A stretch of DNA of 20,000 nt, taken from the IMG/VR virus record IMGVR_UViG_3300021387_000812, one strand, 5' to 3'. The notes under the pieces are model-generated. The model saw only the letters and a program-made list of their open reading frames with translations, did not search any database and was not told where the DNA came from. Position 1 is the first letter of the stretch, and every line of letters begins with the position of its first letter. The DNA is from an uncultured virus (IMG/VR IMGVR_UViG_3300021387_000812). Lineage: Duplodnaviria; Heunggongvirae; Uroviricota; Caudoviricetes. The translations under genes and the position numbers were made by a program. Positions 2,030-19,569 of the stretch are shown one piece after another.

Positions 2030-2230
2030 ATGAAACAGACAGTTGCAATCTCAGAGAAGTTCTTGCTCAGCACAGAAGAAGCGAGCGACTACTTCAACAT
2101 CGGCATCAACAAACTGCGCCGGCTGATACAGAACAACACGAACGCCGGTTGGATTCTATGGAACGGCAACCGCGCATATATAAAAAGGAAAGAGTTCGAA
2201 AAATATCTAACTGGAATCTCCAATATTTAA
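2030..2230 (+). CDS. xis: Excisionase, Tn916-Xis-like winged HTH
   Basis: EKFLLSTEEASDYFNIGINKLRRLI...WILWNGNRAYIKRKEFEKYL resembles Tn916 Xis; AGGAG RBS; directly upstream of the integrase. Confidence 0.88.
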   Translation: MKQTVAISEKFLLSTEEASDYFNIGINKLRRLIQNNTNAGWILWNGNRAYIKRKEFEKYLTGISNI

Positions 2231-2231
2231 C

Positions 2232-2261
2232 TTGTAATCTACCCCGACCGCAGAATATAAT
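2232..2261 (+). promoter_or_regulatory. Putative sigma-A promoter for the integrase
   Basis: TTGTAA (2232-2237), 18-nt spacer, TATAAT (2256-2261), followed by the AAAAGGAG RBS of int. Confidence 0.5.
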
Positions 2262-2288
2262 AAGACGTCTGACGTAAAAGGAGTCCAG

Positions 2289-3542
2289 ATGAAAAGGAAG
2301 GATAGTAAAGGCAGAGTCCTACGACCTGGAGAATATGAAAGGAGAGATAAGAGATACGCGTTTAGGTATAAGAATGAAAAAGGGAAGGCCGCATACATAT
2401 ACTCCTGGCGGCTGATCGAGTCTGATCCGCACCCCAAAGATAAGCCGCGCTGCGAATGTCTCAGAGAACTTGAGAAGTCTATTCTGAAAGATCTTGGAGA
2501 CGGCATCCAGACCAACTCAAAAATCACGCTCAACCAAAGATGGGATGAGTACATCGCAAACAAGCCGAAACTGAAGCAGTCCACCGCTACAAACTATAAG
2601 TACATGTACAACAAGTACATCCGGGATGACATCGGCGGCATGCCGATTAAGGCAATCTCGTACTCGATGTGTAACAAGTTCTTCAACCATCTGATCAATG
2701 AAATAGGATTCAAGATTAACAGCGTCGAGATTGTCAACACGATTCTATCCCCAGTGTTTAAGATTGCGGTGCGAGACGGACTCATCAGATTAAATCCGAT
2801 GGAAGGAGTTATGACGGAGTTGAAAAAGAATAACAGCGAAGTTGAAACGCGGCATGCTTTATCGATGGATCATCAGCTTGCGCTGATGGATTTTGTGCGG
2901 ACTCACCCGACTTACGGGCACTGGTATCCATTGCTGGTCTGCCTGCTCGGTACGGGCTGCCGCATCGGTGAAATGCTCGGTCTTCGGTGGCAGGATATTT
3001 ACTGGAAACAGAACATCATCTCCATAAATCACAGCCTGATCTACCGGTTACAAGATGACGGCTCTGTAAAGTTCAGGATCACCACTACAAAAACAAAGAA
3101 CAGCAACCGGGAGATCCCAATGTTCAAGTCTGTGAAGGAAGTTTTAAGAGCAGAGTACGAGCGGCAAGCCAAGTCAGGCTTCTGTAGGGCTGAAATCGAA
3201 GGGTACTCTGGTTTTATCTGGCAAAACAAGGATGGTTACGTGCTCTCACCACACGCGGTGAACAGAGCGCTGGAAAGAATCATCTCTGCGTACAACGATT
3301 TCGAAACTGGAAGAGCCGCAGAAGAGAAGAGACGACCAGATCTGCTCCCACACTTCTCAGCCCACCATCTCAGGCACACTTTTTGCACCAGGCTGTGCGA
3401 AGTGGAGACAGATATCAAGGTTATCCAGGAGATCATGGGCCACGCGAACATCACAACCACGATGGACATCTATAATGAGTCCAACCTGGACCGCAAAAAG
3501 AAGAAGTTTGAAGAACTGGAAAAGATTTCAAACGCCTTCTGA
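2289..3542 (+). CDS. int: Tyrosine recombinase/integrase, Tn916-Int-like
   Basis: N-terminal arm-binding domain (KRKDSKGRVLRPGEYERRDKRYAFRY); catalytic R (GCRIGE), K (TKT), HxxR (HHLRHT), H (MGHANI), Y (MDIY). Confidence 0.95.
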   Translation: MKRKDSKGRVLRPGEYERRDKRYAFRYKNEKGKAAYIYSWRLIESDPHPKDKPRCECLRELEKSILKDLGDGIQTNSKITLNQRWDEYIANKPKLKQSTATNYKYMYNKYIRDDIGGMPIKAISYSMCNKFFNHLINEIGFKINSVEIVNTILSPVFKIAVRDGLIRLNPMEGVMTELKKNNSEVETRHALSMDHQLALMDFVRTHPTYGHWYPLLVCLLGTGCRIGEMLGLRWQDIYWKQNIISINHSLIYRLQDDGSVKFRITTTKTKNSNREIPMFKSVKEVLRAEYERQAKSGFCRAEIEGYSGFIWQNKDGYVLSPHAVNRALERIISAYNDFETGRAAEEKRRPDLLPHFSAHHLRHTFCTRLCEVETDIKVIQEIMGHANITTTMDIYNESNLDRKKKKFEELEKISNAF

Positions 3543-3547
3543 TGCTG

Positions 3548-3774
3548 TACTAAAAATTTACCAAAATTTTCCGTGAGAATACGTAGCGAAAAGTAGTAAA
3601 ACGTAGGTAAGATTTTAGTACGACAAAAATAGAGTCAACAAAATCAACGGCTCCAAGGCGCAAGGCTACTTTTCCCGACGATGAAGCCTGTCGAAACCTG
3701 AAATCCCAGTAAAATCAACAGGTTCAGCACTATAAACACCCTACAAAAACAGCGGTTTACCAAAAATTTACCAA
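3548..3774 (+). other. attP-like attachment region with lysS 3'-end core
   Basis: Direct repeats TACTAAAAATTTACCAA (3548) and TACCAAAAATTTACCAA (3758) bracket a core at 3666-3701 encoding LLFPTMKPVET*. AAAATCAAC occurs on both sides of the core. Phased A(C/A)GTAG repeats at 3581, 3591 and 3601. Confidence 0.75.
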
Positions 3775-3814
3775 TGATCTATCAAAAAACGTCAGACAAT
3801 AAGGTTTTCGTAAT

Positions 3815-3846
3815 TTAGAACACGACTCGAAAGAGCCGTGTTTTAA
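3815..3846 (+). terminator. Hairpin/terminator downstream of the att region
   Basis: TTAGAACACGACTC-GAAA-GAGCCGTGTTTTAA, GAAA tetraloop, one mismatch, T-rich 3' side. Confidence 0.55.
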
Positions 3847-3880
3847 GTTTGGAAAATTTTATACGAAGGTAGGACGAAGG

Positions 3881-4216
3881 ATGGATAAATTAGAGACATG
3901 TATTAAATCGTTGGAGTCAAACTTGAGTAAACAGTCAGGCAAAAATACGATCACTCTACCTGTAAACACAGTTGCAAACGCACTTGATCTTCTTAAAGAG
4001 ATAGCAGAGCCGAAAAAACTAACAAATAAAGAATGGCTCGCAACTTTAACTCCGGATCAGTGGTGGTTGGCGATGGATTGGCTGTTTCATCAGTACGGTA
4101 AAAGGTATGATAACTCTTATATTGCTATTGTAGAGTGGTTGAGTATGTCCAGAGACACATGGGTAGAGCAAGCAATTAAAGGAGAAGGAGTATGGGACAA
4201 ACCATTTTGGCAATAA
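3881..4216 (+). CDS. Hypothetical protein (111 aa)
   Basis: AGGA RBS; TNKEWLATL motif resembles small phage proteins. Confidence 0.7.
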   Translation: MDKLETCIKSLESNLSKQSGKNTITLPVNTVANALDLLKEIAEPKKLTNKEWLATLTPDQWWLAMDWLFHQYGKRYDNSYIAIVEWLSMSRDTWVEQAIKGEGVWDKPFWQ

Positions 4217-4440
4217 TTAGTGCGGCGGTTGCAGTAGTTGGAGCGATAACAATCTTTCGATTAGTGTATGTTGTGTTTAGCAAGTTGATCGATGGCGACA
4301 CTCATGAAGAATCAGTTGAATTTGGAGACAAGGCGATCGAAACCCTTTTTGGAGCTATTGTCCTAGCTCTCATCGCGATAGCGTTAAGAATTTTGTATTT
4401 CATTGGAACATATCTTATTCTACCGATCTTTGGATTATAA
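4192..4440 (+). CDS. Small membrane protein (2 TM)
   Basis: GGAGAAGGAG RBS; two hydrophobic stretches separated by an acidic loop. Confidence 0.7.
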   Translation: MGQTILAIISAAVAVVGAITIFRLVYVVFSKLIDGDTHEESVEFGDKAIETLFGAIVLALIAIALRILYFIGTYLILPIFGL

Positions 4441-4456
4441 AAAAGGAGTGCGAACA

Positions 4457-4651
4457 ATGGTTTGTGTTAAAGAGATTACTGCCATGTTCAAAGGTAAGGA
4501 TGGGTCAATGGGATTCCGCACCGGACAAGAATATAAGCTGTGGTACTTCGAGAAGAACGGCAGGTTCTACATCAGCCGCCCATTCGAAGACGCAACAGCG
4601 ATATCCTACGACACAATAGCCGCGATTAAAAAGAATTGGGAGATAAAGTGA
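4457..4651 (+). CDS. Hypothetical protein (64 aa)
   Basis: AAAGGAG RBS before ATG 4457; MVCVKEITAMFKGKDGSMGFRTGQEY... Confidence 0.7.
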   Translation: MVCVKEITAMFKGKDGSMGFRTGQEYKLWYFEKNGRFYISRPFEDATAISYDTIAAIKKNWEIK

Positions 4652-4908
4652 TGACAGTAGAAGAACTGTATAACATGGTTTCATTCTGCGTAGAACGTGG
4701 AGACGATGGACTCTCTGTGTCTACAGCCGAAGATGCGAAGACGCTATGTGAAGCTCTTAGTTTATTAAAAAAGCAGAAGCCAATGAAGCCGTCATGGAAT
4801 TGCGGCAGTGCGTACTGTGGAAACTGCGGGCAGAAGCTGCCGCGTAAACATCATGAATACGAACGAAACTATTGCTCGAACTGTGGCCAGGCGGTGATTT
4901 GGGAATGA
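4651..4908 (+). CDS. Modular array gene with C-terminal zinc ribbon
   Basis: LLKKQKP hinge, then CGNCG...CSNCGQAVIWE*; stop overlaps the next ATG. Confidence 0.75.
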   Translation: MTVEELYNMVSFCVERGDDGLSVSTAEDAKTLCEALSLLKKQKPMKPSWNCGSAYCGNCGQKLPRKHHEYERNYCSNCGQAVIWE

Positions 4909-5168
4909 TAGATGAACGAAAAAAGGTCGAGTTTATAGAATCCTACATCAAAGTCGGAAACGACTACCAATGGAATGACAACCACGGACTATTGGTCAGG
5001 TGCAAGGATTGCAAACATCGTCCAACAGATCCGAAAAACAAAGGGGTTGGACAGTCTTTGGTATTTCCTGATGAAATTTGTCCATGCCAAGTTGGAGACA
5101 ATTGGTATTCGTGGATGCCGAAAGATGACTGGTTCTGCGCTGGCGGTGAATGTAAAGAAGGACAGTGA
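4905..5168 (+). CDS. Modular array gene with VRCKDC...WFCAxG zinc module
   Basis: ATGA overlap; LVRCKDCKH...CPC...DWFCAGGECKEGQ*. Confidence 0.75.
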   Translation: MIDERKKVEFIESYIKVGNDYQWNDNHGLLVRCKDCKHRPTDPKNKGVGQSLVFPDEICPCQVGDNWYSWMPKDDWFCAGGECKEGQ

Positions 5169-5175
5169 AGTGGGA

Positions 5176-5355
5176 ATGATTGCAGTTGTTATTTTGATTG
5201 TTTTGGTTACAGTTTTATCTGTCTATTCTGCGTTTGGAACATATCAGAATCAACAGGATATAAAAGCGTTGGCAGATGTGACAAAAGGGATAGGCATTAA
5301 TTCAAAACACATTTGCCAAATCCTTGAGATGCTAAAACAGCAGGAAGGTCAGTGA
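5176..5355 (+). CDS. Small membrane-anchored array protein
   Basis: ATG inside the junction repeat; hydrophobic N-terminus MIAVVILIVLVTVLSVYS; ends MLKQQEGQ*. Confidence 0.65.
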   Translation: MIAVVILIVLVTVLSVYSAFGTYQNQQDIKALADVTKGIGINSKHICQILEMLKQQEGQ

Positions 5356-5360
5356 AGCGA

Positions 5361-5705
5361 ATGGACAGGGAGAAGGTTGTAAAAGAGTTTGAACATTTAT
5401 TAAATGCAGCAAATGGAAACTATCAGGATTTTGTTGACTTAACCGTTGACGGAGCCGAAGAGATTCTTGCCTTGCTGAAAGAGCAGGAAGCAAAAGAGCA
5501 GTGTTTAAAAACCAAATGCATTTTATGCCCACATTGTGATAATTGCGACGTTGATGAAAACGGATTACTGAAAGAGCAGGAAGCAATAAAACCCGTAAAA
5601 CAAATAGAAGAACATGAATGGACAGTATGTGGTTATTGCCGCGAGCATCTTATCTCTAAATGGATGTTCTGTCCATATTGCGGAAGGCCGGTGAAATGGG
5701 AATGA
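5361..5705 (+). CDS. Modular array gene (DREKV N-module, two LKEQEA hinges, zinc ribbon)
   Basis: MDREKVV...LLKEQEA...CILCPHCDNC...LLKEQEA...CGYC...CPYCGRPVKWE*. Confidence 0.8.
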   Translation: MDREKVVKEFEHLLNAANGNYQDFVDLTVDGAEEILALLKEQEAKEQCLKTKCILCPHCDNCDVDENGLLKEQEAIKPVKQIEEHEWTVCGYCREHLISKWMFCPYCGRPVKWE

Positions 5706-5971
5706 CAAAGGAAGAAGCATATCGTTATATTGATAATCTTAAATGGTTAAAAGGGTACGACAATACAACAATCGGCGGGAAAACCGTTGGTGAGATATTG
5801 GACGAAATCGAAGCTATGCTAAAAGAGCAGGAAGCTGTAAAGATCGAAGTAAAAAAGATTAACGATAGTGGAAGATGTGGACGATGCCCAAACTGCTTTA
5901 TGGAATTAAACGAGACGGATTATCCGAAGTTTTGCGGATATTGCGGTCAGAAGGTGAAATGGAATGATTGA
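5702..5971 (+). CDS. Modular array gene with zinc ribbon
   Basis: ATGA overlap; MLKEQEAV...CPNC...CGYCGQKVKWND*. Confidence 0.78.
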   Translation: MTKEEAYRYIDNLKWLKGYDNTTIGGKTVGEILDEIEAMLKEQEAVKIEVKKINDSGRCGRCPNCFMELNETDYPKFCGYCGQKVKWND

Positions 5972-6290
5972 CAGGGAGAAGGTTATTAGAGCAGTTGATT
6001 CATGTTTTGAAGACTGGTTAGAGCGACATAGATATTTTTTACATCCGTCAGACTTGGAAAAGGTTCGGCAGACAAAAGCTGATGCCCTTGTCCTTCTAAA
6101 AGAGCAGGAGTCAAAACTAATTACAACAAAAGTTCGTAAAGTTCTTTGGGATGAAACTGATGATGGACCTGTTTACAATATGGATACCTTTTACTGTTGC
6201 CCAAAGTGTGGTTATGTTTTATCCAGAACTAACAAAAATAAAGATATTCACTTTTGTAGTAAATGTGGGCAGGCGGTGAAGTGGGAATGA
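5964..6290 (+). CDS. Modular array gene with zinc ribbon
   Basis: MIDREKVI...LLKEQES...CPKCG...CSKCGQAVKWE*. Confidence 0.8.
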   Translation: MIDREKVIRAVDSCFEDWLERHRYFLHPSDLEKVRQTKADALVLLKEQESKLITTKVRKVLWDETDDGPVYNMDTFYCCPKCGYVLSRTNKNKDIHFCSKCGQAVKWE

Positions 6291-6583
6291 ACTTCGAAGC
6301 CGTGAACGATCTCCGTAAAAGTACAGATTTCCTTCTCAATGTAAGGAAAGTAAACGGTTGTCAGTATTCGAAGAAGGAAATGGAAGTAATGCTTGAAGCA
6401 CTAAATGCCGTAAAACTGTTGGAACCTGCTGAACCGATCTATGTTACGAATCCTTATACAGATTTGCCCGTGAGCTATTGTCCCCGCTGCAGGGAATCTA
6501 TCAGGAAGTTTCAATATGGTGAAGCATACAAAGAATCGAAGTATTGTACTTTTTGCGGTCAGGCGGTGAAGTGGTGTGATTGA
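6287..6583 (+). CDS. Modular array gene with zinc ribbon
   Basis: ATGA overlap; CPRC...CTFCGQAVKWCD*. Confidence 0.78.
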   Translation: MNFEAVNDLRKSTDFLLNVRKVNGCQYSKKEMEVMLEALNAVKLLEPAEPIYVTNPYTDLPVSYCPRCRESIRKFQYGEAYKESKYCTFCGQAVKWCD

Positions 6584-6886
6584 CAGGGATTTGCTGTTAG
6601 AACGGCTTGAACGGCTTGCAGTTGTTCTTGACGAGCTGATGCCACAATGTGCTGAATTGGTGCGTGATTCCATTGTCCTACTGAAAGAACAGGAAACATA
6701 AAATATTTACAAATGCAAAAATTGTGGCACATGGGTTTCGGCTGAAAATGTTGTCCGTTGTAAGGATTGTAAGCACTACAAAGATGGATTTTGCTATAAT
6801 CCGAACACATATGACGATAAAAAACAAGGAGAAATACTGTGCCTGATTGGTTCTGTGCTAACGGGGAACGAAAGGAAGGTTGGTGA
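6576..6886 (+). pseudogene. Disrupted array gene (in-frame TAA and frameshift)
   Basis: GTG-IDRDLLLERLE...LLKEQET then TAA (6699-6701); the same frame continues YKCKNCG...VVRCKDCKHY; a shift at the A6 run (6819-6824) restores VPDWFCANGERKEGW*. Confidence 0.75.
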
Positions 6887-6893
6887 AGTAGAA

Positions 6894-7076
6894 ATGAAAA
6901 TCAGAATTGAAAAGACATCTGACCCTAATTTTACTATTTATGCTGAATATGCTAGCTTGGAACAATGTATTAATTTGTTAATAAATGAGGCTAAAGAAAA
7001 TCAGTATGTCGTTACAAAAAAATTTGACAGTCAATGTGACCGGACTGTGGAAATTTACGACTTTTATAGGGAGTAA
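6894..7076 (+). CDS. Hypothetical protein (60 aa)
   Basis: ATG within the junction repeat; MKIRIEKTSD...VEIYDFYRE*. Confidence 0.65.
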   Translation: MKIRIEKTSDPNFTIYAEYASLEQCINLLINEAKENQYVVTKKFDSQCDRTVEIYDFYRE

Positions 7077-7080
7077 TACC

Positions 7081-7521
7081 ATGCCAACAAGAAACAAAAA
7101 ATACAAGTACGTTGTAGAGAAGGAAATGGAATGGATTGATGAAGATGTGCGGATCATAAACGAAAAACTTAATAATGAAAATCCGGGAGACACAAGCCGT
7201 TCCACTATTGAATTACATCTTCGTAGAATTTGGGCTGAAAACGAAAGGGCCAGACTTTATATGTTTATGAGGGAATTTAAGCAAAAGTGTGAAAATCAGA
7301 AAGAGCCAAAAATAATTGAGAGGTGCGATCTTGGAAAAGGCAGAAAACGTATATGGGTTGAATTTAGATGTAACGGATTGATTTTCGAAAAAAATATGGA
7401 AGACATAGACTTTCTTCTGAATTTTAATGCTGAAAGTTGTGGCTACGGTGAACTGTGGCGTTGTTGGACGGAGAGACCAACAGATGAGCAGAGAGAGGCG
7501 GTGAAGTGGGATGACGATTAA
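7081..7521 (+). CDS. Modular array gene ending WRCWTxRPTxEQREAVKW
   Basis: GGGAG before ATG 7081; C-terminal module shared with the next gene. Confidence 0.72.
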   Translation: MPTRNKKYKYVVEKEMEWIDEDVRIINEKLNNENPGDTSRSTIELHLRRIWAENERARLYMFMREFKQKCENQKEPKIIERCDLGKGRKRIWVEFRCNGLIFEKNMEDIDFLLNFNAESCGYGELWRCWTERPTDEQREAVKWDDD

Positions 7522-7846
7522 AGAATGGGAAAAAGACTTCAAATCATATGTAACATGGTTAGATATGCCAAGAGATGATTATAAAGGCATCATGAAATAC
7601 ATTGACGATGCTATTAATCTACTGAAAAAGCAGGAAGCGCGAGAATTAACTATAGACGAATGGAGAGAATGGAAAGCAAATCCAAAGCGAAATCCAATAT
7701 GCGAATTATGGGAAAATGATACATCTCCGATGTGGGTTCTTACTCCGGACAAGGTTCATGAGCCAGCGTTACTTATGGGTAAACTGAAACTGTTTACAGG
7801 AAAACCGACTTTTGAACAGTGTAAGGCGGTAAAATGGAATGGATAA
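7511..7846 (+). CDS. Modular array gene
   Basis: LLKKQEAR hinge; ends KPTFEQCKAVKWNG*. Confidence 0.75.
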   Translation: MTIKEWEKDFKSYVTWLDMPRDDYKGIMKYIDDAINLLKKQEARELTIDEWREWKANPKRNPICELWENDTSPMWVLTPDKVHEPALLMGKLKLFTGKPTFEQCKAVKWNG

Positions 7847-8153
7847 TTTACCAGTGGGAATTTTAGCCTTTTGGATTTTAATCGGTGGTTTTATAGGTGG
7901 CTTTTTACAAATGATGTTTGCATTATTTGATGACGATGAACTGTCATTTAAAACAGCATTTTGGTATGCGATGGTGTTTTATGAAAACAATGAAGACAGA
8001 CTTAATTCCGCTGGATTAACTATAGTTATTGTTGCAATGTCATTATTACTTTTACCGGGTTATGTTTTGATATTTTTCATAACGTGCTTAAATAAAGCGT
8101 TTTGCAAATTGTGGAAAGCATATAAATATGTATTCAGAAAAGAACAGAAATAA
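7839..8153 (+). CDS. Membrane protein (2 TM)
   Basis: Starts in the junction repeat; two long hydrophobic segments and a basic C-terminus. Confidence 0.72.
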   Translation: MDNLPVGILAFWILIGGFIGGFLQMMFALFDDDELSFKTAFWYAMVFYENNEDRLNSAGLTIVIVAMSLLLLPGYVLIFFITCLNKAFCKLWKAYKYVFRKEQK

Positions 8154-8178
8154 TATAAAGAAGTGTGGTAAAAATTTG

Positions 8179-8286
8179 ATGACAAACAGGAGGAAAACCA
8201 ACGTATTACAGTGCTGTTGGTAACTGGTTATGTAAAAAAAGACAGTCGATACATACTGCGGACCGGCGGTGAAGTGGGATGGATAA
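8179..8286 (+). pseudogene. Decayed array-gene remnant
   Basis: Begins like the DREKV module (ATGACAAACAGGAGGAAA) and ends TYCGPAVKWDG* in a well-conserved junction repeat, but has no continuous frame. Confidence 0.5.
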
Positions 8287-8551
8287 ATCAGAAATTATCA
8301 GTAGACTCAAAAAAATAGGCTATCATGCAATCCATATTAACGGTGAAAGCCCGTTTGTTATGAGCCTTGACGATGGAATAGCCGTGAACGAAGCAATTAA
8401 TATGCTGAATGAGCAAGAAGCGGTTGAATGTATAAATGATCATGGAGTTTTGCTGTGCGGAAGGTGTAAAAATATTATTGGCTATGACGATGGCTATGGA
8501 CGCAGCTATAAAAGCAAGTTTTGTTGCGAATGCGGAAGGTCGGTGAAATGA
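8279..8551 (+). CDS. Modular array gene with zinc ribbon
   Basis: MLNEQEAV hinge; CGRC...CCECGRSVK*. Confidence 0.75.
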   Translation: MDKSEIISRLKKIGYHAIHINGESPFVMSLDDGIAVNEAINMLNEQEAVECINDHGVLLCGRCKNIIGYDDGYGRSYKSKFCCECGRSVK

Positions 8552-8553
8552 AA

Positions 8554-8748
8554 ATGGGATTAACAGAAAGTCATTGGTTTGAAGATGAGGAACCCACATT
8601 AACAGAACAACAATTAGAAAATGCGATAGCAGAGAAAGAAAGCGCATATAAACGTGGGTACGAAAAAGGTTTTAATGACGCTATGCTTGGCAAACAAGAA
8701 TTGATGTATGAAGGCATAGACGGAAAATGGCATAAGAAAAATTGGTGA
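8554..8748 (+). CDS. Hypothetical protein (64 aa)
   Basis: Bounded by junction repeats; AYKRGYEKGFNDA motif. Confidence 0.65.
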   Translation: MGLTESHWFEDEEPTLTEQQLENAIAEKESAYKRGYEKGFNDAMLGKQELMYEGIDGKWHKKNW

Positions 8749-8755
8749 AGTGGGA

Positions 8756-9166
8756 ATGAGCAGACAATTTAATACTGATGAGTTGATGGTATTTCCACCA
8801 GATAATGGAGAGCCTATAACGTTGAATGCATTCGAAAGCATCGAATGCGCCATTGAATTCGCTATCGCATTTGATGTGCGAAGTTGGTCTGAAGATTGGA
8901 TAAGCGCATGGATTTACTCCATTGTATTTGGCCGGGATGATGAAGAATGGGATAAAGTGGCGAAGGAGTTCGGCTGGGATGAAGAAGATCGTAAAAGGGT
9001 AAACATGATGCATGAACAATGGATAAAAGCGAAGGAAAAGATGGAACAGTCAAAGATTGTTCGTTGCAGGGATTGCAAATGGTATTCACCGGAAATATCA
9101 TGGTGTAACAATTTTCATTCACCAAAGGAAGAAACATTTTATTGTGCTGATGGGAAAAAGCGGTGA
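8756..9166 (+). CDS. Modular array gene with VRCxDC...FYCADG module
   Basis: IVRCRDCKW...C...FYCADGKKR*; bounded by junction repeats. Confidence 0.75.
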   Translation: MSRQFNTDELMVFPPDNGEPITLNAFESIECAIEFAIAFDVRSWSEDWISAWIYSIVFGRDDEEWDKVAKEFGWDEEDRKRVNMMHEQWIKAKEKMEQSKIVRCRDCKWYSPEISWCNNFHSPKEETFYCADGKKR

Positions 9167-9172
9167 AGTGAA

Positions 9173-9370
9173 ATGAAAATAGAAGAATGGAAAAATAAAA
9201 CTGATGAATGGAAGAACGGTTATTTGGCGTATGTAAATAATTACACTATTGCATATCCAGATGAAATGAGTAAAGATTGGTGGCTCGGCTTTAATTATGC
9301 TTGCAGATATGCAGAGTTAGATAAACAGAATGGTGAATACCCCTTTATATTTTTTGCAAAAAAGCGGTGA
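9173..9370 (+). CDS. Hypothetical protein (65 aa)
   Basis: Bounded by near-identical AAAAAGCGGTGAAGT junctions; internal EWKNGY / DWWLGF repeat. Confidence 0.65.
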   Translation: MKIEEWKNKTDEWKNGYLAYVNNYTIAYPDEMSKDWWLGFNYACRYAELDKQNGEYPFIFFAKKR

Positions 9371-9376
9371 AGTAGA

Positions 9377-9658
9377 ATGATTGAAAAAAATAGTTATGAC
9401 TATATTGCAGATGCGGTTAGAACATATTGGAAGAATACTTTCCCACAAGATGTAGTAGCATTTTTTCGGCAAAAATATAGTTATGATGACGAATGGGAAT
9501 GTCTTGAAGAGGTTATTTTTTGCAAAAGTGATTCTGATTATGAAACAATAAGTTTCTTAAATGATTTTTGCGAAGGACAAACGTGTGTAAAAGACATAAC
9601 AATCGTACCATTATTAGAAATAACTGAATATTACGCAAGAACAAAACTTAATTATTAA
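9377..9658 (+). CDS. Hypothetical protein (93 aa)
   Basis: Bounded by junction repeats; FLNDFCEGQ motif. Confidence 0.7.
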   Translation: MIEKNSYDYIADAVRTYWKNTFPQDVVAFFRQKYSYDDEWECLEEVIFCKSDSDYETISFLNDFCEGQTCVKDITIVPLLEITEYYARTKLNY

Positions 9659-9681
9659 ATAGCAAAAGACGGTTAAGTAAA

Positions 9682-10047
9682 ATGATTGATCTGGAGAAGG
9701 TTATCAAAGGGCTGGATTCTTGTGCAAAATGGATGGGGAAAGACGATAGTGATGCTTGTAATAACTGCCCCTATCATCTTAGTCACTTCAGCTATGATGA
9801 CAATAATTGCATAGCCGCAGTCAACAATGATGCTATTGCCCTGCTGAAAGAGCACGAAGCAAAATGGATCTACGGTGAAGATGAAACAGGTATAGATGGG
9901 TGGCATTGTTCAGAGTGCAACTTTTTTGAGCCGTGGTTTTATGATTTTACTGATGATATTGATTTTATAAGGTTCTACAAACACTGTCCAAATTGCGGAA
10001 GTAGAATGACATCGTACACAGTGAAACCAACACAAGACAGGTGGTAA
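9682..10047 (+). CDS. Modular array gene with two Cys modules
   Basis: MIDLEKVIKGLDSC...CNNCPY...LLKEHEAKW...CSEC...CPNCGSRM. Confidence 0.8.
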   Translation: MIDLEKVIKGLDSCAKWMGKDDSDACNNCPYHLSHFSYDDNNCIAAVNNDAIALLKEHEAKWIYGEDETGIDGWHCSECNFFEPWFYDFTDDIDFIRFYKHCPNCGSRMTSYTVKPTQDRW

Positions 10048-10053
10048 AGTAGG

Positions 10054-10320
10054 ATGATTGACCGGGAAAAGGTCGCCAAAGAACTAGCTGTTAGGATACA
10101 AAGCGACAGCGAAGAATGGAATACGATTGAATTACCAATCGAACAAGCAAAAGATATTCTTGCTCTGCTGAAAGAGCGGGAACCTATAGAGCCCGAAGTA
10201 TTTATGGATGGAATTATAGAACGATATAAATGTAGACGATGCGGAAAACACCTTATCAAAACAAGATTTTGGAAAGACAACTACTGTTCACTATGCGGCG
10301 GTGAGATATTATGGAAATGA
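10054..10320 (+). CDS. Modular array gene with zinc ribbon
   Basis: MIDREKV...LLKEREP...CRRCG...CSLCGGEILWK*. Confidence 0.78.
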   Translation: MIDREKVAKELAVRIQSDSEEWNTIELPIEQAKDILALLKEREPIEPEVFMDGIIERYKCRRCGKHLIKTRFWKDNYCSLCGGEILWK

Positions 10321-10550
10321 TAGATAAAAATAAGATAATTGAAGGGTTGGAATGCTGTTCCACAAAAAATCTATGCGAGCAGTGCCCATACTACGCCGGC
10401 TGGAACGAAGATTGCGTCGGCGCACTGTCGAAAGATGTTCTTAAACTATTAAAACAGCAGGAGCAGAAGCTGGTTTGCCCAAAGTGTAACGGGCAACCAA
10501 AGTGGGTGACATGCGGACTTTGTGGACAGGTGATAAAATGGAATCAATAA
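10317..10550 (+). CDS. Modular array gene with two Cys modules
   Basis: MIDKNKIIEGLECC...CEQCPY...LLKQQEQ...CPKC...CGLCGQVIKWNQ*. Confidence 0.75.
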   Translation: MIDKNKIIEGLECCSTKNLCEQCPYYAGWNEDCVGALSKDVLKLLKQQEQKLVCPKCNGQPKWVTCGLCGQVIKWNQ

Positions 10551-10936
10551 ATAAGATTATTGAAGGGCTTGAACATTGTGAGCTTGGGTCAGGCCAGCCT
10601 TGCTATGAAAAGGATTGCCCATACTATCTTGACCATGATTGTTTAGATTATTTAAAAACTGATATCATTGCGCGGCTAAAAGAACAAGAAGAACGCATCA
10701 GGATTTTAGATAGAGCAATCAAATACATACCGCAACCTACAAAACTACTGGATGTATTTGGGAATGATTATGCAAAGATCGTAAAATGTAAGCATTGTAT
10801 ATACGGAGAAGGACTACCGGATGGACTGTATCAATGTCACTACGACAAGGATTATACCCGCCGCGAACAGAAGCACAGCCCAAGCTGGTTCTGTGCAGAC
10901 GGAAAGAGAAGGGAACAGAATGAGTTGGAGAGATGA
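10538..10936 (+). CDS. Modular array gene with two Cys modules
   Basis: MESINKIIEGLEHC...DCPY...RLKEQEE...IVKCKHC...WFCADGKRRE. Confidence 0.75.
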   Translation: MESINKIIEGLEHCELGSGQPCYEKDCPYYLDHDCLDYLKTDIIARLKEQEERIRILDRAIKYIPQPTKLLDVFGNDYAKIVKCKHCIYGEGLPDGLYQCHYDKDYTRREQKHSPSWFCADGKRREQNELER

Positions 10937-11114
10937 TCCCGTAACTGAAAAGCAATTGGAAATGATTAAGAACATGCATGAGTTCTCTGACTGGCCGTTA
11001 CCTAAGTTCACGGGGCAGACCAAAGGTGAAGCTGCCGACTATATCGATACATGGATTGTAAAGGCACACGAAAGTATTTTGGATTGCTGGGATGTAACGC
11101 AAGGGATTCAGTAA
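10920..11114 (+). CDS. Small helical protein (TEKQL...TKGEAADYI motif)
   Basis: GAAGGGA before ATG 10920; motif typical of short phage helical domains. Confidence 0.65.
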   Translation: MSWRDDPVTEKQLEMIKNMHEFSDWPLPKFTGQTKGEAADYIDTWIVKAHESILDCWDVTQGIQ

Positions 11115-11130
11115 AGGACGGTGAAGTCTG

Positions 11131-11517
11131 ATGGATGAATTAAGACCTTGCCCTTGGTGTAATGAAACATTGCCGCTCGTTATCTTAACAGAACGATGTT
11201 CTTGCGGCAAACACCATTGGGTTTTTGTGAAATGCCATAAATGTGGAGCCAGTGGGCCTACCGTGCCTTATTATAAAGAGACAGACGATTTAAGTATACG
11301 TGAAAAGGCCGCAGCTGGATGGTGGAATAACATGCAGCCAACACAAGCCACGATTAAACCAGTACGAGATAAAGAGACAGGCCGGCTCTGGTTATGCAGC
11401 GATTGCGGCTGTTACATAGGGTTTGAAGACAACGACGAAGACGATCCGAACGAGTTCAGCAACTTCTGTCCGCAATGTGGAAAGATGATAGATTGGAACA
11501 ATCGAGATGGAAATTGA
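11131..11517 (+). CDS. Lar-like zinc finger fused to an array-type zinc ribbon
   Basis: ELRPCPWC...VKCHKCGASGP...AAGWWN, then IKPV...CSDCG...FCPQCGKMIDWN. Confidence 0.75.
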   Translation: MDELRPCPWCNETLPLVILTERCSCGKHHWVFVKCHKCGASGPTVPYYKETDDLSIREKAAAGWWNNMQPTQATIKPVRDKETGRLWLCSDCGCYIGFEDNDEDDPNEFSNFCPQCGKMIDWNNRDGN

Positions 11518-12298
11518 TATTTTCGATAAACGTGGAAATAAAGTTGACACCTTAAACCTATGCGAAGCTTGCAGAGAAGCAACGATGATTGCGAAAAAAT
11601 ATAACGCAACTCACAACAAAACTATCATGAAAGTCGACTTATGCGACGACTGCAAAAAGGAATATGAAAGATATTGTAAAAACAAAGAATTAAAAGGAGA
11701 GAATAAAATGATGAATCTGTTTGGTGGAATGAACAACATGTTTGGCAAGGTAGCTCCTGGAATGTGCCGGGTCTCTATGAGTGGAAAGATTGCGATCAAA
11801 ACCAGCTCCGGATATAAAGCCTACGATGTAAACACCGGCCGGCTAACAAACTGCGACAACTTCGCCTTCGACATCGGCGAAGACTTCTTCTTCGTTATCC
11901 CGACAAACAAAGTCACAAAGGGAGACATCATTCTTGCTGGCGGCAAACCCCGGTGTGTAATCGAAGCCGCAAAGAATGAGATTAAAACCTTTAGTTATGA
12001 AGATGGCACGATTGATACCCTTGTCCCGGAGCGTCATATGTTCATGGGCAAGCAATACTTCTACGGCAAGATTATCTCTGTCTTTGGTAACATGTTCGGC
12101 AAAGGTAAAGGTATGAACAACATGATCAAATACATGATGATGAGTGAGATGCTTGGCGGCAAAACCGGGACTGACAGCAATAACATGCTCCCGATGCTGA
12201 TGATGATGAACGGCGGCGGTGGCATCTTTGATGGAATGTTCGACATGGACGAAGACGAAGATATTGAAGAAGAAGTCAACGATGAGGAGGATGAATAA
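11507..12298 (+). CDS. Hypothetical protein with Met/Gly/Asn-rich C-terminus and acidic tail (probable main start 11708)
   Basis: Single ORF, but a strong AAAGGAGA RBS precedes the in-frame ATG at 11708; stop overlaps the vWA gene start (TAATG). Confidence 0.75.
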   Translation: MEIDIFDKRGNKVDTLNLCEACREATMIAKKYNATHNKTIMKVDLCDDCKKEYERYCKNKELKGENKMMNLFGGMNNMFGKVAPGMCRVSMSGKIAIKTSSGYKAYDVNTGRLTNCDNFAFDIGEDFFFVIPTNKVTKGDIILAGGKPRCVIEAAKNEIKTFSYEDGTIDTLVPERHMFMGKQYFYGKIISVFGNMFGKGKGMNNMIKYMMMSEMLGGKTGTDSNNMLPMLMMMNGGGGIFDGMFDMDEDEDIEEEVNDEEDE

Positions 12299-13176
12299 TG
12301 GGTGGTGGAACGTGGACGACGTCATCGGCAACATCGTATGTAACAACCAAGTACGCCGATCTTAACGTTAGAAGTCTTGACGATCTTATCAATCTTGACA
12401 CTACTCAGATTTATGAGTCAAAGAAACTGGCGCCGGAGTTAAATCCCAAAGGAGTTATCCGGGAATGCCGCGACTCAGAAGAGCACCCGAATACGTTCCC
12501 GGTCATTCTCGCGCTGGATGTGACGGGGAGTATGGGTTTGGCGACAAAGCACTGCGCCGCAAAGCTGGATGATATTATGACGGAGCTTTACGGTAAAGTA
12601 GCAGATATCGAGTTTATGATGATGGGCATCGGCGATTTGGCATATGACAGCGCTCCGATCCAAGCGACACAATTTGAAAGCGATGTCCGTATTATGGATC
12701 AGACCACCAAGATCTGGTTCGAACAGGGCGGCGGTGGGAACCAGTTCGAATCCTACACGGCAGCCTGGTACTTCGGGCTGCATCACACCGATCTGGACTG
12801 CTGGAAGCGGGGAAAGAAGGGGCTCATCATTACAATGGGTGATGAACCTCTGAATCCATATCTCCCTGGGGACCCATTAAACATTGCTCTTGATAAGCAA
12901 AGGAACGTACATTCAGAAGATGTTGGGACGGGCAAGCTTTTCAAAGAAGCATGTGAGAAGTTTGATATTTATCACATTGCAATCACAGACAACGAATCAA
13001 GCTTCTCGCATTATAAGCGCAAGATCCTTGAATCATGGGGAACACTGCTTGGGCAGCATTGTCTGTTTGCGGAGAGTAAAGATTTACCAAAAGTAATCGG
13101 CCAGATCGTAGATGACTGCATTGAAAATAATAAGCAGTTTGTCGCGGCTGACAATAAAGAAGGGATAAGCTGGTAA
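12298..13176 (+). CDS. von Willebrand factor A (vWA) domain protein
   Basis: MGGGTW N-terminus; VILALDVTGSM MIDAS-like motif, GGGGNQFESY, IITMGDE; GAGGAGG RBS. Confidence 0.85.
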   Translation: MGGGTWTTSSATSYVTTKYADLNVRSLDDLINLDTTQIYESKKLAPELNPKGVIRECRDSEEHPNTFPVILALDVTGSMGLATKHCAAKLDDIMTELYGKVADIEFMMMGIGDLAYDSAPIQATQFESDVRIMDQTTKIWFEQGGGGNQFESYTAAWYFGLHHTDLDCWKRGKKGLIITMGDEPLNPYLPGDPLNIALDKQRNVHSEDVGTGKLFKEACEKFDIYHIAITDNESSFSHYKRKILESWGTLLGQHCLFAESKDLPKVIGQIVDDCIENNKQFVAADNKEGISW

Positions 13177-13177
13177 A

Positions 13178-14254: not shown

Positions 14255-14275
14255 AGTAAAGAAGGTAGACTGGGA

Positions 14276-14494
14276 ATGACCGATATTAATACCGTGCTGA
14301 GTTGGTTGGAAGGTTTGACGCAAGACGACTGGAGAGCATATCATAGCGACAGCGAAGTGCAGAATATCGCGGCGGCCGCAATGGAACTGATCAAAATGCA
14401 GAATATTGCGGCGGCTGCAATGGTGCTGGCCAAACACAAAGTAATGTCACCAAATGACTTTGCAGTTGAAACATCTGAGAATAAACAGGAGTAA
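14276..14494 (+). CDS. Outlying array-type gene with internal tandem duplication
   Basis: Preceded by a junction-like GAAGGTAGACTGGGAATGA; QNIAAAAM occurs twice with a 39-nt period. Confidence 0.65.
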   Translation: MTDINTVLSWLEGLTQDDWRAYHSDSEVQNIAAAAMELIKMQNIAAAAMVLAKHKVMSPNDFAVETSENKQE

Positions 14495-19170: not shown

Positions 19171-19569
19171 ATGAAAAAGAAGACTTTGTTGGTTTTTGCG
19201 TTGCTAATCATGATGGTGTTACTGAGTGCATGCAGACAGAGCGAGACGGTGACCTACAATCTGAAGCGGGAAGCGGACGACTTCAACATTCGGAGAAGAA
19301 TTACGGTGTTGAATACGCGGACGGATACGCCGATGATGCAGATTACCGGGTTGCTGGCGATAAGTACGGATGACGATGGGGACCTGAACATCACGATTGA
19401 GAAAGCTCCTGGTGAGTACGCGTTAAACTTTGCACACCTGTCACAGGACACGACATACATTGTGGAGCAGATTCAAACGAAAGAAGTCAGCAAGTATCAG
19501 TACGAGATTAAGTTTTATCCTTCGCAGCTCATCAGCGGGTGGTATGACGTGCAGTTGAAGGATGACTAA
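19171..19569 (+). CDS. Phage lipoprotein
   Basis: GGAGG RBS; signal peptide with lipobox LSAC; YNLKREADDFNIRRRITVLN resembles a recurrent Firmicutes phage lipoprotein family. Confidence 0.82.
   Translation: MKKKTLLVFALLIMMVLLSACRQSETVTYNLKREADDFNIRRRITVLNTRTDTPMMQITGLLAISTDDDGDLNITIEKAPGEYALNFAHLSQDTTYIVEQIQTKEVSKYQYEIKFYPSQLISGWYDVQLKDD

Follow-up and report, generated by a model that had tools for sequence, protein, structure and literature searches.

What joins the small genes of this viral array, and why does one short repeat recur at nearly every boundary between them? The window, the whole 20,000-nt stretch that we analysed, comes from an uncultured Caudoviricetes virus (IMG/VR IMGVR_UViG_3300021387_000812), a phage of gut bacteria, and contains the following array.

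4651..11517, + strand: array of about 23 small genes, all on this strand, with products of 41-146 aa, closely packed or overlapping (ORFs and translations)

Intergenic gaps run from -17 to +23 nt at most array boundaries. No terminator-like site was detected on the + strand between 2889 and 11866, and a scan of the array for promoter and terminator consensus sequences gave results at shuffle level. An earlier note on this DNA had proposed that a single repeat joins about 20 genes at 4.9-11.1 kb and had interpreted it as the joint of an integron-like array. We find the observation confirmed and the interpretation partly supported.

By our own calls of gene starts (array range 4905-11131), the motif GGTGAAGTGGGA(A)TG stands at 17 of the 22 starts between 4.9 and 11.1 kb and at 1 of 27 starts outside the array, at 14276 (start-codon-anchored match in the window; Fisher p = 6e-8). 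A start was counted as motif-positive when at least 72% of an 11-12 nt reference matched directly 5' of the start codon. The negative array starts are 5361, which has a degenerate copy with a 5-nt spacer, 7081, which has an AGGGAG site instead, and 10317, 10538 and 10920. Scanned as a 19-mer, the motif occurs with zero mismatches at 6272-6290, as originally reported, and with 2-3 mismatches at five sites (4890, 5161, 5687, 8265 and 8741; 0.01 expected); six copies were reached in 0 of 200 shuffles. A degenerate form gives 9 matches in the window versus 0.37 expected, and the 12 matches of a regular expression all lie on the + strand, within 5690-10043, with none on the - strand. The junctions and the features bound up with them are listed here, with tails written up to the stop codon.

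4890..4908, + strand: junction, frame A, tail CGQAVIWE, ATGA overlap (19-mer scan; start-reference test 10/12)
5161..5179, + strand: junction, frame B, upstream gene tail KEGQ, stop is the TGA inside AGTGA, spacer AGTGGGA non-coding (start-reference test 11/12)
5344..5363, + strand: degenerate junction GGTCAGTGAAGCGA-ATG, repeat family D10; the ATG at 5361 (MDREKV...) is the likely true start of the following gene
5687..5705, + strand: junction, frame A, tail CGRPVKWE (19-mer scan; start-reference test 11/12)
5950..5967, + strand: junction, 6-nt spacer, tail GQKVKWND (degenerate scan; start-reference test 10/11)
6272..6290, + strand: junction, exact consensus, tail CGQAVKWE (0 mismatches)
6562..6579, + strand: junction, GTG start, tail GQAVKWCD (start-reference test 10/11)
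6576..6890, + strand: broken family gene, in-frame TAA at 6699-6701, frame change before PDWFCANGERKEGW and the stop (sequence and translation)
6879..6897, + strand: junction ending the broken gene, frame B
7497..7514, + strand: junction, tail AVKWDDD, 3' of an unrelated WRCW..PTDEQRE family protein (start-reference test 11/11)
7825..7842, + strand: junction, tail CKAVKWNG, 5' of a membrane protein gene (start-reference test 9/11)
8247..8282, + strand: orphan zinc-ribbon tail remnant YCGPAVKWDG, no upstream gene (125-nt gap), non-coding motif at 8265 (repeat families D2 and D9; start-reference test 11/11)
8540..8557, + strand: junction variant GGTGAAATGAAAATG, tail CGRSVK (start-reference test 9/12)
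8741..8759, + strand: junction, frame B, tail KKNW, exact 15-mer, spacer non-coding (19-mer scan)
9159..9176, + strand: junction, frame B, tail GKKR, left edge of cassette 9173-9370 (degenerate scan, cassette homology)
9363..9380, + strand: junction, frame B, tail AKKR, right edge of cassette 9173-9370 (degenerate scan, cassette homology)
9668..9685, + strand: junction, fully non-coding, GGTTAAGTAAAATG (degenerate scan)
10040..10057, + strand: junction, frame B with TAA stop, tail QDRW (degenerate scan)
11117..11134, + strand: junction, non-coding, GGTGAAGTCTGATG, final junction of the array (start-reference test 9/11)

Overall, the motif takes the form (GGA-A/C-A/G-G-G/T-C)GGTGA-AGTGGG(A)-ATG(A), about 15-27 nt. 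Predicted pairing to the 3' tail of 16S rRNA is -11.3 kcal/mol at the 22 array starts versus -8.3 at the 27 other starts, and the motif is not predicted to be more accessible in the mRNA than other places are (p = 0.62). Genes outside the array mostly carry AAGGAG-type ribosome sites, in agreement with the AGGAG sites noted before. Since the spacer AGTGGGA cannot pair with the 16S tail, reading the motif as a ribosome site leaves its best-conserved part unexplained, a point that the earlier note had also made.

The same DNA is read in different ways at different boundaries. The xVKW-type tails described at 5687, 5950, 6272, 6562, 7497 and 7825 are all present, and we add 4890 (AVIWE) and 8540 (RSVK). 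A stop inside GGTGA, AGTGA or GGTAA ends the upstream gene at 5161, 5348, 6879, 8741, 9159, 9363 and 10040, again as described, and to the non-coding copies at 9668 and 11117 we add 8265, where the only present role of the orphan tail remnant is as leader of gene 8279. Among 204 motif copies counted, 117 read xVKWE and stop, 41 close an upstream ORF with the internal TGA, 36 are not the end of any long ORF and the other 10 are of different kinds; these proportions are conditional on retrieval because all loci outside the window were found through an exact 18-mer. That 18-mer has 86 contexts, with 42 copies after a zinc-ribbon tail, 15 after the WRCW..PTDEQR family, 11 after further unrelated proteins and 18 with an upstream stop in that frame. 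Upstream proteins in frame B are mutually unrelated, and their final residues (EGR, DRR, ERR, KGW) are set by the motif. The gene family of 9173-9370 and its homologues (L055, L048) enters the motif in three different frames. The motif is found in all three reading frames, after unrelated protein tails and in non-coding DNA.

Conservation persists where the motif is non-coding. We chose sites only as GGTGA-N6-8-ATG followed by an ORF, with the seeding copies removed. Among 50 frame-B sites with a 7-nt spacer, the counts were A47, G43, T48, G44, G47, G40 and A48 of 50, and where the spacer is non-coding each position is 80-96% conserved. Polarity is strict: in 77 non-redundant IMG/VR loci (766 kb), a scan that allowed up to 3 mismatches placed 197 copies on the strand of the genes and 3 on the opposite one. 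To judge from these sequences, the junction repeat acts as a nucleic-acid-level joint and not as a peptide motif; the proposal of a DNA-level joint with a built-in stop, ribosome site and start is supported.

The observation extends beyond the window, with the exact 18-mer present in 81 IMG/VR loci. Across 596 Gb of genomes the exact motif has only 20 matches, of which about 12 belong to Clostridia-type MAGs from ruminants or the gut; a search of 50,697 deposited phages returned none, and the collections searched yielded no close relative of the window itself. A ribosome-site habit of the host, or a preference genome-wide, is ruled out: in five host MAGs (2.4-5.7 Mb) the motif stays near the control count except for clusters on single phage contigs (for example, 4 exact copies within 1.7 kb on one contig), and in phages it is confined to islands. 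In five phage records of 115-151 kb, three of them complete with terminal repeats, copies lie within islands of 0.9-2.8 kb, and two of the five records have a single copy. The ORFs downstream have a median length of 83 aa and form 92 clusters. Genes for SSB, dUTPase, ThyX and RusA in motif-bearing loci never carry the motif.

Are genes exchanged at the motif? At the DNA level, the best matches of the array genes are each on another contig and among other neighbours. The homology of cassette 9173-9370 begins and ends at its two junctions, and the cassette is common to three unrelated contexts from motif to motif. Two loci that are 98-99% identical (L029 and L061) differ by one 300-bp gene, and the crossover lies inside the flanking junction repeats, which share only 14 and 6 exact nt around one mismatch. 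A relative from run X3 is without 11499-14276, and with it the three-gene PurZ module, between two junction-like copies. Genes bounded by the motif stand in different orders and neighbourhoods, in line with the proposal, and in many other uncultured phages of rumen and gut the motif marks the places where small genes have been exchanged or have disappeared. The close-relative events open to examination number two or three, all from metagenome assemblies. The sequences at the edges of the module, and a second conserved stretch within the array, are as follows.

11479..11510, + strand: junction-like tail CGKMIDWN..., left edge of the three-gene module 11507-14254 (run X3 contig joint from 11498 to 14479, 22 letters between)
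14260..14279, + strand: junction-like copy GGTAGACTGGGAATGA, right edge of the PurZ-containing module, only motif match outside the array (start-reference test 9/12)
4750..10465, + strand: conserved 32-nt stretch, intragenic LLKEQE(A) hinge, 10 copies at 4750, 5460, 5553, 6081, 6666, 7607, 8390, 9829, 10153 and 10434 (repeat family D1)

The hinge is a second crossover point, given a chimeric gene in L029 and loose ends and joints at 5489-5495 and 9828-9851. It also qualifies the earlier description of the cargo as unrelated, which holds only in part: about half of the array proteins are paralogues with the LLKEQE hinge and a CxxC...CxxC zinc ribbon. The expectation that breakpoints fall inside the repeat holds for the crossover between L029 and L061; others fall at the hinge, at RCKDCK and at one different intergenic repeat. 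Because breakpoints also lie at these other conserved motifs and that repeat, the junction is one of several crossover points and not a unique site. On the sequences compared, general short-homology recombination is a better match to these breakpoints than a dedicated recombinase. In bulk, homology was broken at 41 and crossed at 4 motif boundaries versus 259 and 73 non-motif boundaries (p = 0.048), a weak signal from noisy ORF calls; in any mosaic phage genome one expects homology to end at gene boundaries, and a conserved motif by itself extends alignments up to its own edge.

We favour the reading, with a probability of roughly 0.55, that the motif is a frame-proof adaptor of stop, Shine-Dalgarno site and start that also offers short homology for cassette shuffling. 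Its 5' part would be an extended, bipartite Shine-Dalgarno site. It would provide a stop for two of the three incoming frames, through the TGA inside GGTGA and the TGA of ATGA, and place the next start codon 6-7 nt past GGTGA. Given this two-frame stop and fixed start distance, an upstream ribosome would terminate within about 10 nt of the next start whatever gene precedes, and we infer that the next small gene is translated by coupling with the upstream one. Many small accessory genes have these 15-27 nt in common. They form a large pool of at least 92 sequence clusters, with the zinc-ribbon family dominant, and occur across numerous uncultured phages of Bacillota from ruminants and the gut. 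The adaptor could therefore also serve as exchange homology, by which genes would be gained, lost and swapped through ordinary homologous or short-homology recombination.

A doubtful alternative, though one with real points in its favour, is that the motif is an operator at which a sequence-specific trans-acting factor jointly switches the accessory genes, with recombination as a side effect. The factor might be a translational repressor or activator, an mRNA-acting RNase or a stoperator-type DNA-binding protein. Conservation is strict at every position, even in the spacer, which has no coding role and does not pair with rRNA, and polarity and distance to the start codon are fixed. The closest analogue, the start-associated sequence (SAS) of Cluster K mycobacteriophages, is proposed as a possible binding site of a host or phage product in its description (PMC3203893), and zinc-ribbon proteins, dominant in the islands (53 of 77 loci), are conceivable binders. 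However, besides this family, which locus retrieval favours, no protein family occurs in most of the 12-kb loci. The identical 15-mer is found in very different phages, from fragments of about 6 kb to complete 151 kb genomes, often as 1-7 copies in one small island, a pattern that one would hardly expect of a regulatory circuit serving the whole phage or of an operator specific to immunity.

It is unlikely that the motif has no special function and is the conserved 3' end of an expanding zinc-ribbon family (CxxCGQAVKWE and stop) with an adequate ribosome site, the other-frame and non-coding copies being recent tail remnants from deletions and fusions. The zinc-ribbon tails among the exact contexts (42 of 86) are what this predicts, and the motif follows 61 of 97 family members. 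The window has the orphan remnant at 8247-8282 and the broken gene at 6576-6890, where a run X1 contig has one extra letter at 6818 (18.6 of 71.3 depth). Towards the right of the array, spacers show a G-to-A drift (AGTGAA, AGTAGA, AGTAAA, AGTAGG), and some frame-B tails resemble a zinc-ribbon tail fused to a second motif copy. Nevertheless, with seeds removed, non-coding and frame-B sites (95 + 87) outnumber frame-A sites (57), with the spacer kept as described above. Neutral remnants should have decayed, since the flanking proteins are unrelated or only 25-40% identical, and what is preserved is not the peptide, since a single family accepts three different tails imposed by the motif.

The integron-like interpretation, in which the adjacent integrase or another site-specific recombinase moves single-gene circles at the junction, is very unlikely. 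It draws on the following neighbours of the array.

2030-2230, + strand: Tn916-type excisionase (Pfam Tn916-Xis 3.7e-17)
2289-3542, + strand: tyrosine integrase (Pfam Phage_integrase 2.5e-27, Integrase_DNA 5e-24; PHROG integrase 3e-68)

The array begins about 1.1 kb downstream of the integrase, just past a 338-nt intergenic region that is likely to contain attP; its genes appear to be without promoters of their own by consensus scan, and the single-gene indel between two junction copies is precise. But an integrase with a Tn916 N-terminal DNA-binding domain and a Tn916-type Xis make a normal prophage module, and tblastn of the integrase against 81 motif-bearing IMG/VR loci gave no homologue. 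We found no inverted repeats or hairpins at the array junctions, crossovers also lie at other homologous motifs, and motif islands occur in phages of very different size and type. Both genes at 2030..3542 are array neighbours outside the junction system, and the position of the array next to int/attP looks incidental.

Finally, mis-joining of contigs at a shared repeat by short-read assemblers is a most improbable source of the mosaic. In its favour, the comparison sequences are all metagenome assemblies, source-sample contigs break repeatedly inside the array and many short-sided joints fall on motifs. Against it, junction copies are seldom identical over more than about 20-27 nt (in the L029 indel, over 14 and 6 nt), which is shorter than the final k-mers usual in assembly. 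Samples and studies independent of each other show the same cassette boundaries, and the motif pattern within the window is independent of the assembly of other contigs.

How does the adaptor that we favour compare with known systems? Integron cassettes (IntI, attI, attC) resemble the array in their one-directional, probably promoterless small genes of varied function, gained and lost singly at a repeated boundary element. The array differs in having no IntI-type integrase, no attC hairpins and no recombinase linked to arrays elsewhere, and its boundary element is a translation signal. The stoperators of Cluster A mycobacteriophages (L5) are, like the motif, asymmetric 13-15 nt sites at short gene junctions in one orientation relative to transcription. 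They occur throughout the genome of their phage and correspond to its own repressor; the motif, in contrast, is confined to islands of 0.9-2.8 kb and identical in unrelated phages.

Stoperators are named as a contrast to SAS of Cluster K mycobacteriophages in the account of Pope et al. 2011 (PMC3203893). As described there, SAS is, like our motif, a short asymmetric repeat a few bases 5' of starts in one orientation, confined to the non-structural part of the genome, with a Shine-Dalgarno core and conserved positions unable to pair with 16S rRNA. As with our motif, the upstream stop sometimes lies inside it, and it is linked to many gene families and essentially absent from the host chromosome. 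SAS function was still called unverified in the relevant passage of a 2025 paper (PMC12699233). Its consensus, GGGATAGGAGCCC, and its host phylum are different, and SAS is described within one phage cluster (PMC3203893), whereas our motif occurs in small islands of many unrelated uncultured phages. Unlike SAS as described, our motif regularly belongs to the coding sequence of the gene before it, read in two or three frames, and gene exchange is evidenced at it, which the SAS sections of PMC3203893 do not present. Our repeat scan found no ESAS-like inverted repeats accompanying the junction motif.

The promoter-early stem-loop (PeSL) of T4-type phages (Arbiol et al. 2010, PMC2839356; Comeau et al. 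2014, PMC4122927) is likewise described as a short conserved regulatory sequence. It flanks small non-essential genes of unknown function in hyperplastic regions, and its copies, like those of our motif, delimit the insertions, deletions and replacements by which close relatives differ, implying recombination between copies (PMC2839356). Mini-circles are reported for PeSL cassettes. PeSL is an intergenic, transcriptional promoter-plus-terminator (PMC2839356), whereas our motif would be a translational stop, ribosome site and start that overlaps coding sequence. Unlike PeSL, the junction motif showed no promoter in the promoter scan and no stem-loop in the repeat scan.

Botstein's modular theory of 1980 is said to hold that short conserved linkers between functional modules give homology for exchange between otherwise unrelated phages, and reportedly concerned the large functional modules of lambdoid phages. 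Clear natural linkers of this kind are scarce. The motif is like them in being a short conserved sequence with homology for exchange; in place of large modules, its units are single small genes, and the linker probably doubles as a translation signal.

The window belongs to a temperate phage, or a prophage, whose host is a gut bacterium, and every gene called in it lies on the + strand. The genes that frame the array and its right flank are as follows.

2030-2230, + strand, Tn916-type excisionase (Pfam, PHROG)
2289-3542, + strand, tyrosine integrase (Pfam Tn916 integrase DNA-binding domain PF02920, 5e-24; PHROG)
within 12298-14254, right of the array, + strand, PHROG-2971 protein (1e-51), adjoining the PurZ-like gene
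13178-14254, + strand, PurZ-like adenylosuccinate-synthetase homologue (PHROG 1211 '2-aminooxy adenylosuccinate synthetase', 5e-43; Pfam Adenylsucc_synt, 1.5e-22)
16524-17177, + strand, RNA ligase (Pfam/PHROG)
19171-19569, + strand, RDF-like protein (Pfam/PHROG)

A gap of 338 nt follows the integrase gene, and then about 27 small genes extend up to 11.5 kb. The stretch 3543-3880 is likely the attP region, with local inverted repeats at 3547-3621 and 3582-3680; one contig of the source run stops at 3863, and between 3863 and 3899 a relative found in X3, a sequencing run of another study, is longer by about 540 letters. At 1113-1977 and 11131-11517 are three Lar-like restriction-alleviation homologues (Pfam PF14354, PHROG 599), which bracket the integrase module and form the end of the array. 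Pfam and PHROG gave no function for most array proteins, and the Protein Atlas returned only hypothetical viral clusters for the zinc-ribbon protein encoded at 5964-6287. The position of the Lar-like homologues is a hint that the small zinc-ribbon genes may have an anti-restriction or host-takeover function. To the right, the PurZ-like gene beside the PHROG-2971 protein is a hint that the phage DNA may contain 2-aminoadenine; neither DatZ nor MazZ was recognized as a partner within the 20-kb window.

Gene boundaries from about 4.9 to 11.1 kb share a repeat of roughly 15-27 nt, made of GGTGA, a spacer AGTGGG(A) and the next start, ATG(A). This element is real, strongly non-random and widespread. 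Its 19-mer form, GGCGGTGAAGTGGGAATGA, is matched exactly at 6272-6290, and 5 further copies have 2-3 mismatches, against an expectation of 0.01; a degenerate form has 9 matches in the window where 0.37 are expected. Based on our own calls of every gene start, the motif lies directly 5′ of 17 of the 22 start codons in 4905-11131 and of 1 of 27 outside the array (Fisher p = 6e-8). Genes beyond the array mostly have ribosome sites of the AAGGAG kind, in line with the AGGAG sites named in the earlier note, and the note was also right in all of its junction classes, namely xVKW tails, stops inside GGTGA/AGTGA/GGTAA, and non-coding copies. Its description of the cargo as unrelated applies only in part: about half of the array proteins are paralogues that share an LLKEQE hinge and a C-terminal CxxC...CxxC zinc ribbon, and the description fits the rest, including two membrane proteins. 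An orphan zinc-ribbon tail at 8247-8282, YCGPAVKWDG and a stop, has no upstream gene and ends a 125-nt gene-free stretch (8154-8282); it is apparently the remnant of a deleted family gene, retained as the leader of the next gene. Another family gene, 6576-6890, is interrupted by an in-frame TAA (6699-6701) and by a change of frame. In one contig from the source sample there is an extra letter at 6818 (18.6 of 71.3 depth) that would unite the two C-terminal parts in-frame, so an unbroken allele may coexist in that sample. For the gene called at 5352, the ATG at 5361 is the likely true start.

The motif is a nucleic-acid element and not a peptide. An exact 18-mer, GCGGTGAAGTGGGAATGA, occurs at 81 IMG/VR loci (L001-L081) in 86 distinct contexts; the loci were collected through this exact motif, and the comparison DNA consists of metagenome assemblies throughout. 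Across 77 non-redundant loci, copies of a 15-mer with up to 3 mismatches are nearly all on the gene strand, 197 against 3 on the opposite one. We classified 204 copies, a set that takes in the seeds used to find the loci. In 117 the motif reads as an xVKWE tail with its stop in ATGA (frame A), and in 41 an upstream ORF of at least 35 codons stops at the TGA inside GGTGA (frame B); 36 have no long ORF ending there, and 10 are of other kinds. The upstream proteins of frame B are mutually unrelated, and their end residues (EGR, DRR, ERR or KGW before the stop) are simply the motif's 5′ extension read in that frame. Upstream of the 86 exact contexts we found a zinc-ribbon tail in 42, a WRCW..PTDEQR family protein in 15 (window gene 7081-7521 is a member) and other unrelated proteins in 11, with a stop upstream in that frame in the remaining 18. 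Gene 9173-9370 and its homologues in L055 and L048 enter the motif in three frames, ending in ...FFAKKR, ...FFAKAVKRND and ...FFAKGGEVG.

Conservation of the spacer was measured on sites defined by nothing more than GGTGA followed after 6-8 nt by an ATG that opens an ORF of 40 or more codons; the seeding copies were removed. This yielded 57 sites in frame A, 95 in frame B and 87 others. At 50 frame-B sites with a 7-nt spacer, which is non-coding there, the consensus was A47 G43 T48 G44 G47 G40 A48 of 50, or 80-96% per position. The proteins flanking the motif are unrelated or 25-40% identical, yet the spacer is kept; its conservation therefore needs purifying selection or continual homogenization. 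This implies a reader of the spacer that has gone unrecognized, or a homogenizing process.

Part of the motif can be read as a translation signal. Good pairing is predicted between its 5′ part (GGAAGG/GGACAGG ... GGTGA) and the 16S rRNA 3′ tail, for which an assumed sequence stood in for that of a host genome; with this assumed tail the predicted duplex is -11.3 kcal/mol for the 22 array starts versus -8.3 for the 27 other starts. The spacer AGTGGGA is unable to extend this pairing. For the 12 nt directly 5′ of the start, predicted mRNA accessibility did not differ from that in the rest of the array (p = 0.62). GGTGA and ATG are 6-7 nt apart, and the motif provides a stop for two incoming frames, the third being stopped by a variant with a 6-nt spacer, as in L048; the frequent start ATGATTGA adds two further out-of-frame TGAs. 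With these stops in place, an upstream gene always ends no more than about 10 nt from the start that follows, an arrangement that matches translational coupling. A scan found no + strand terminator-like sites inside the array. Promoter-like sites numbered 38 versus 42.6 in shuffled sequence and terminator-like sites 18 versus 17.0, with none at junctions.

Other roles were considered and set aside on general grounds. A Chi-like recombination hotspot leaves the fixed distance to the start codon unexplained, and a promoter would give a transcript that misses the ribosome site. Replication iterons are wrong in spacing and position, programmed frameshifting between neighboring genes lacks a slippery sequence, and CsrA binding is a poor match.

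The earlier note had itself set an ordinary genome-wide ribosome-site preference against its proposal. This is ruled out for both hosts and phages, since counts in host genomes are near control and the motif is confined to islands in large phages. The genome-wide scan proposed in the earlier note was run on five host MAGs that contain the 18-mer. Allowing up to 2 mismatches, copies of the 15-mer were about as numerous there as those of the reversed control, except for clusters on single contigs, such as four exact copies in 1.7 kb. In 596 Gb of prokaryote genomes the exact 18-mer had only 20 matches, about 12 of them in ruminant or gut Clostridia-type MAGs (Lachnospiraceae, Ruminococcaceae, Solobacterium and others); the other 8 or so, single matches in Proteobacteria and similar, we took as chance. 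We also looked at five phage records of 115-151 kb, of which three are complete and have terminal repeats. Their copies fall within one stretch of 0.9-2.8 kb, and two of the five have a single copy. L061, L078 and L053 (records G006, G010 and G009) belong to such phages and carry the same motif in this one island only, which is why islands or their cassettes seem to move between very different phages. The motif was absent from 50,697 deposited phage genome records, and a sensitive search with a 36-nt junction gave chance matches only (E = 5). Megablast of the whole window against these records found no match. IMG/VR relatives of the integrase (53-59% identity) and of the protein encoded at 12298-13176 (57%) are too distant for breakpoint mapping, and a metagenome scan with the protein encoded at 11131-11517 returned two window-identical contigs and one distant match; none of these searches produced a close relative.

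A strict pattern gave 182 sites; the ORFs downstream of them are short (median 83 aa, only 5 reaching 150 aa) and form 92 sequence clusters. The motif keeps largely to a small number of families. The zinc-ribbon family, with 97 members, has it upstream of 35 and downstream of 61. Other carriers are the WRCW family, RCKDCK...WFCADG families and many singletons. The islands of other phages adjoin replication and nucleotide-metabolism genes (SSB, dUTPase, ThyX, RusA, MazG); at these loci neither these genes nor the HTH genes ever bore the motif. Its presence upstream varies among members of one family, so the motif goes with the neighborhood, not with the gene.

For every array gene of the window, the contig that gives the best DNA match (70-90%) is a different one, and so are the neighbors there; many of the matches stop at a junction. 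In a three-way alignment of cassette 9173-9370, homology runs from the upstream GGTGAAGT to just past the downstream one, and the sequence outside is unrelated. L029 and L061 are 98-99% identical over 8.3 kb. L029 has an extra 300-bp zinc-ribbon gene between two junction copies, and L061 has one hybrid junction, with polymorphisms that put the crossover inside the repeat. The earlier note expected breakpoints between relatives to lie there, and this crossover does; others lie elsewhere, one within an RCKDCK motif, one at a different intergenic repeat (L054/L061) and several at the LLKEQE hinge. Ten DNA copies of the LLKEQE(A) hinge occur inside genes at 4750-10465, and homology to other contigs often begins or ends at them; one gene of L029 joins the N-half of 9682 to the C-half of 5702. 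Domains are therefore shuffled as well as genes. The intergenic repeat, TAAATAACACTTTAA, lies 5′ of a number of small genes and marks the edge of a replacement between two contigs of 97-99% identity (L054 at about 5670-6000, L061 at about 1670-1700); in L054 it is directly 5′ of a non-coding junction copy.

Run X3 has a 5-kb contig that follows the window collinearly, with about 93% identity, and lacks 11499-14276, a three-gene block that includes PurZ. Since the whole block is missing, it behaves as an optional module. Both of its edges are junction-like, ...TAGATTGGAA and ...TAGACTGGGAATGA, the right one being the only motif match outside the array. Joints in the runs often had sides of only 20-35 letters, probably from other motif-sharing phages, and only this long collinear contig was used. 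Some parts of the window had no coverage in runs X2, X3 and X7. In the X3 contig, 15365 is joined to 19571 across 29 other letters, so the relative also lacks the block containing the RNA ligase and the RDF-like gene. Gene 14276-14494 has an internal direct repeat, NIAAAAME...NIAAAAMV, and the relative retains only its first 22 nt and last few codons.

Only a handful of recent exchange events can be read in this way. A bulk test compared boundaries with and without the motif for whether homology was broken or crossed there; it was weak (p = 0.048), its ORF-based boundaries being noisy, and is given no weight here. Recombination in the islands uses any short conserved stretch, and the junction is the most frequent of these. 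Breakpoints at several different conserved stretches fit homologous or short-homology recombination rather than a site-specific enzyme.

Taken together, we favor, at a probability of roughly 55%, a motif that is a frame-proof translational adaptor and also a crossover point for cassette exchange. A bolder proposal, which we hold only tentatively and think rather unlikely, is that selection maintains the junction as a universal adaptor, since this makes genes interchangeable. About 90 or more small-gene families would then circulate as a pool among unrelated phages of several Bacillota families, every gene flanked by the same frame-proof stop, ribosome site and start, and any cassette could enter any island through ordinary short-homology recombination and be expressed at once. 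If true, this would be a functional integron that lacks both integrase and attC, and the old linker model of phage evolution would have its proof in nature.

A frame-proof adaptor that doubles as a crossover point bears on how a pool of small accessory genes travels between unrelated phages, and on the purpose of the start-associated repeats of some phages. One exactly conserved sequence serves as gene end, ribosome site and next start in any reading frame, and marks sites of swap, loss and gain in dozens of uncultured rumen and gut phages. Being short, defined and abundant, the motif makes the linker idea directly testable. It is also a handle for finding accessory-gene islands, which likely hold host-takeover or anti-defense genes, in metagenomes, and it might serve as a ready-made, portable translational coupler for Bacillota.

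A full-text literature search with a 12-mer returned unrelated primers only, and a literature search on conserved junctions, coupling and mosaicism gave nothing on the motif. The earlier note had called the array integron-like. This holds for function at most and fails for mechanism: the integrase beside the array, classed by domain, is not of the IntI type and has PF02920 and a Tn916-type Xis; tblastn (1e-6) found no homologue of it in L001-L081; and the attC hairpins of integron cassette boundaries are absent here, none of 18 inverted-repeat pairs in 3500-11600 being a local junction hairpin. Stoperators are spread genome-wide and are specific to one immunity group, whereas the motif keeps to a single island in each complete genome and unrelated phages carry it in identical form; a repressor was not recognized among the window's genes. 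For shuffling, the closest system is the PeSL cassettes of T4-type phages (PMC2839356). Like these, the motif bounds indels and replacements between close relatives, in the few events seen. PeSLs are promoter-terminator units with a sigma-70 early promoter and a stem-loop, and the motif has neither. The closest analogue overall is the start-associated sequences (SAS) of Cluster K mycobacteriophages, whose position, polarity, Shine-Dalgarno core with unexplained bases, link to non-structural genes of many families and absence from the host are described in PMC3203893. The role of SAS was still given as unverified in a 2025 paper (PMC12699233). The motif differs from the SAS consensus given in PMC3203893; it is an analogue and does not belong to the mycobacteriophage set. 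It shares the traits of SAS nevertheless: it is a short asymmetric repeat a few bases 5′ of starts in one orientation, combines a Shine-Dalgarno core with conserved positions beyond rRNA pairing, is rare or absent in the host chromosome, and is attached to many gene families, all of them non-structural.
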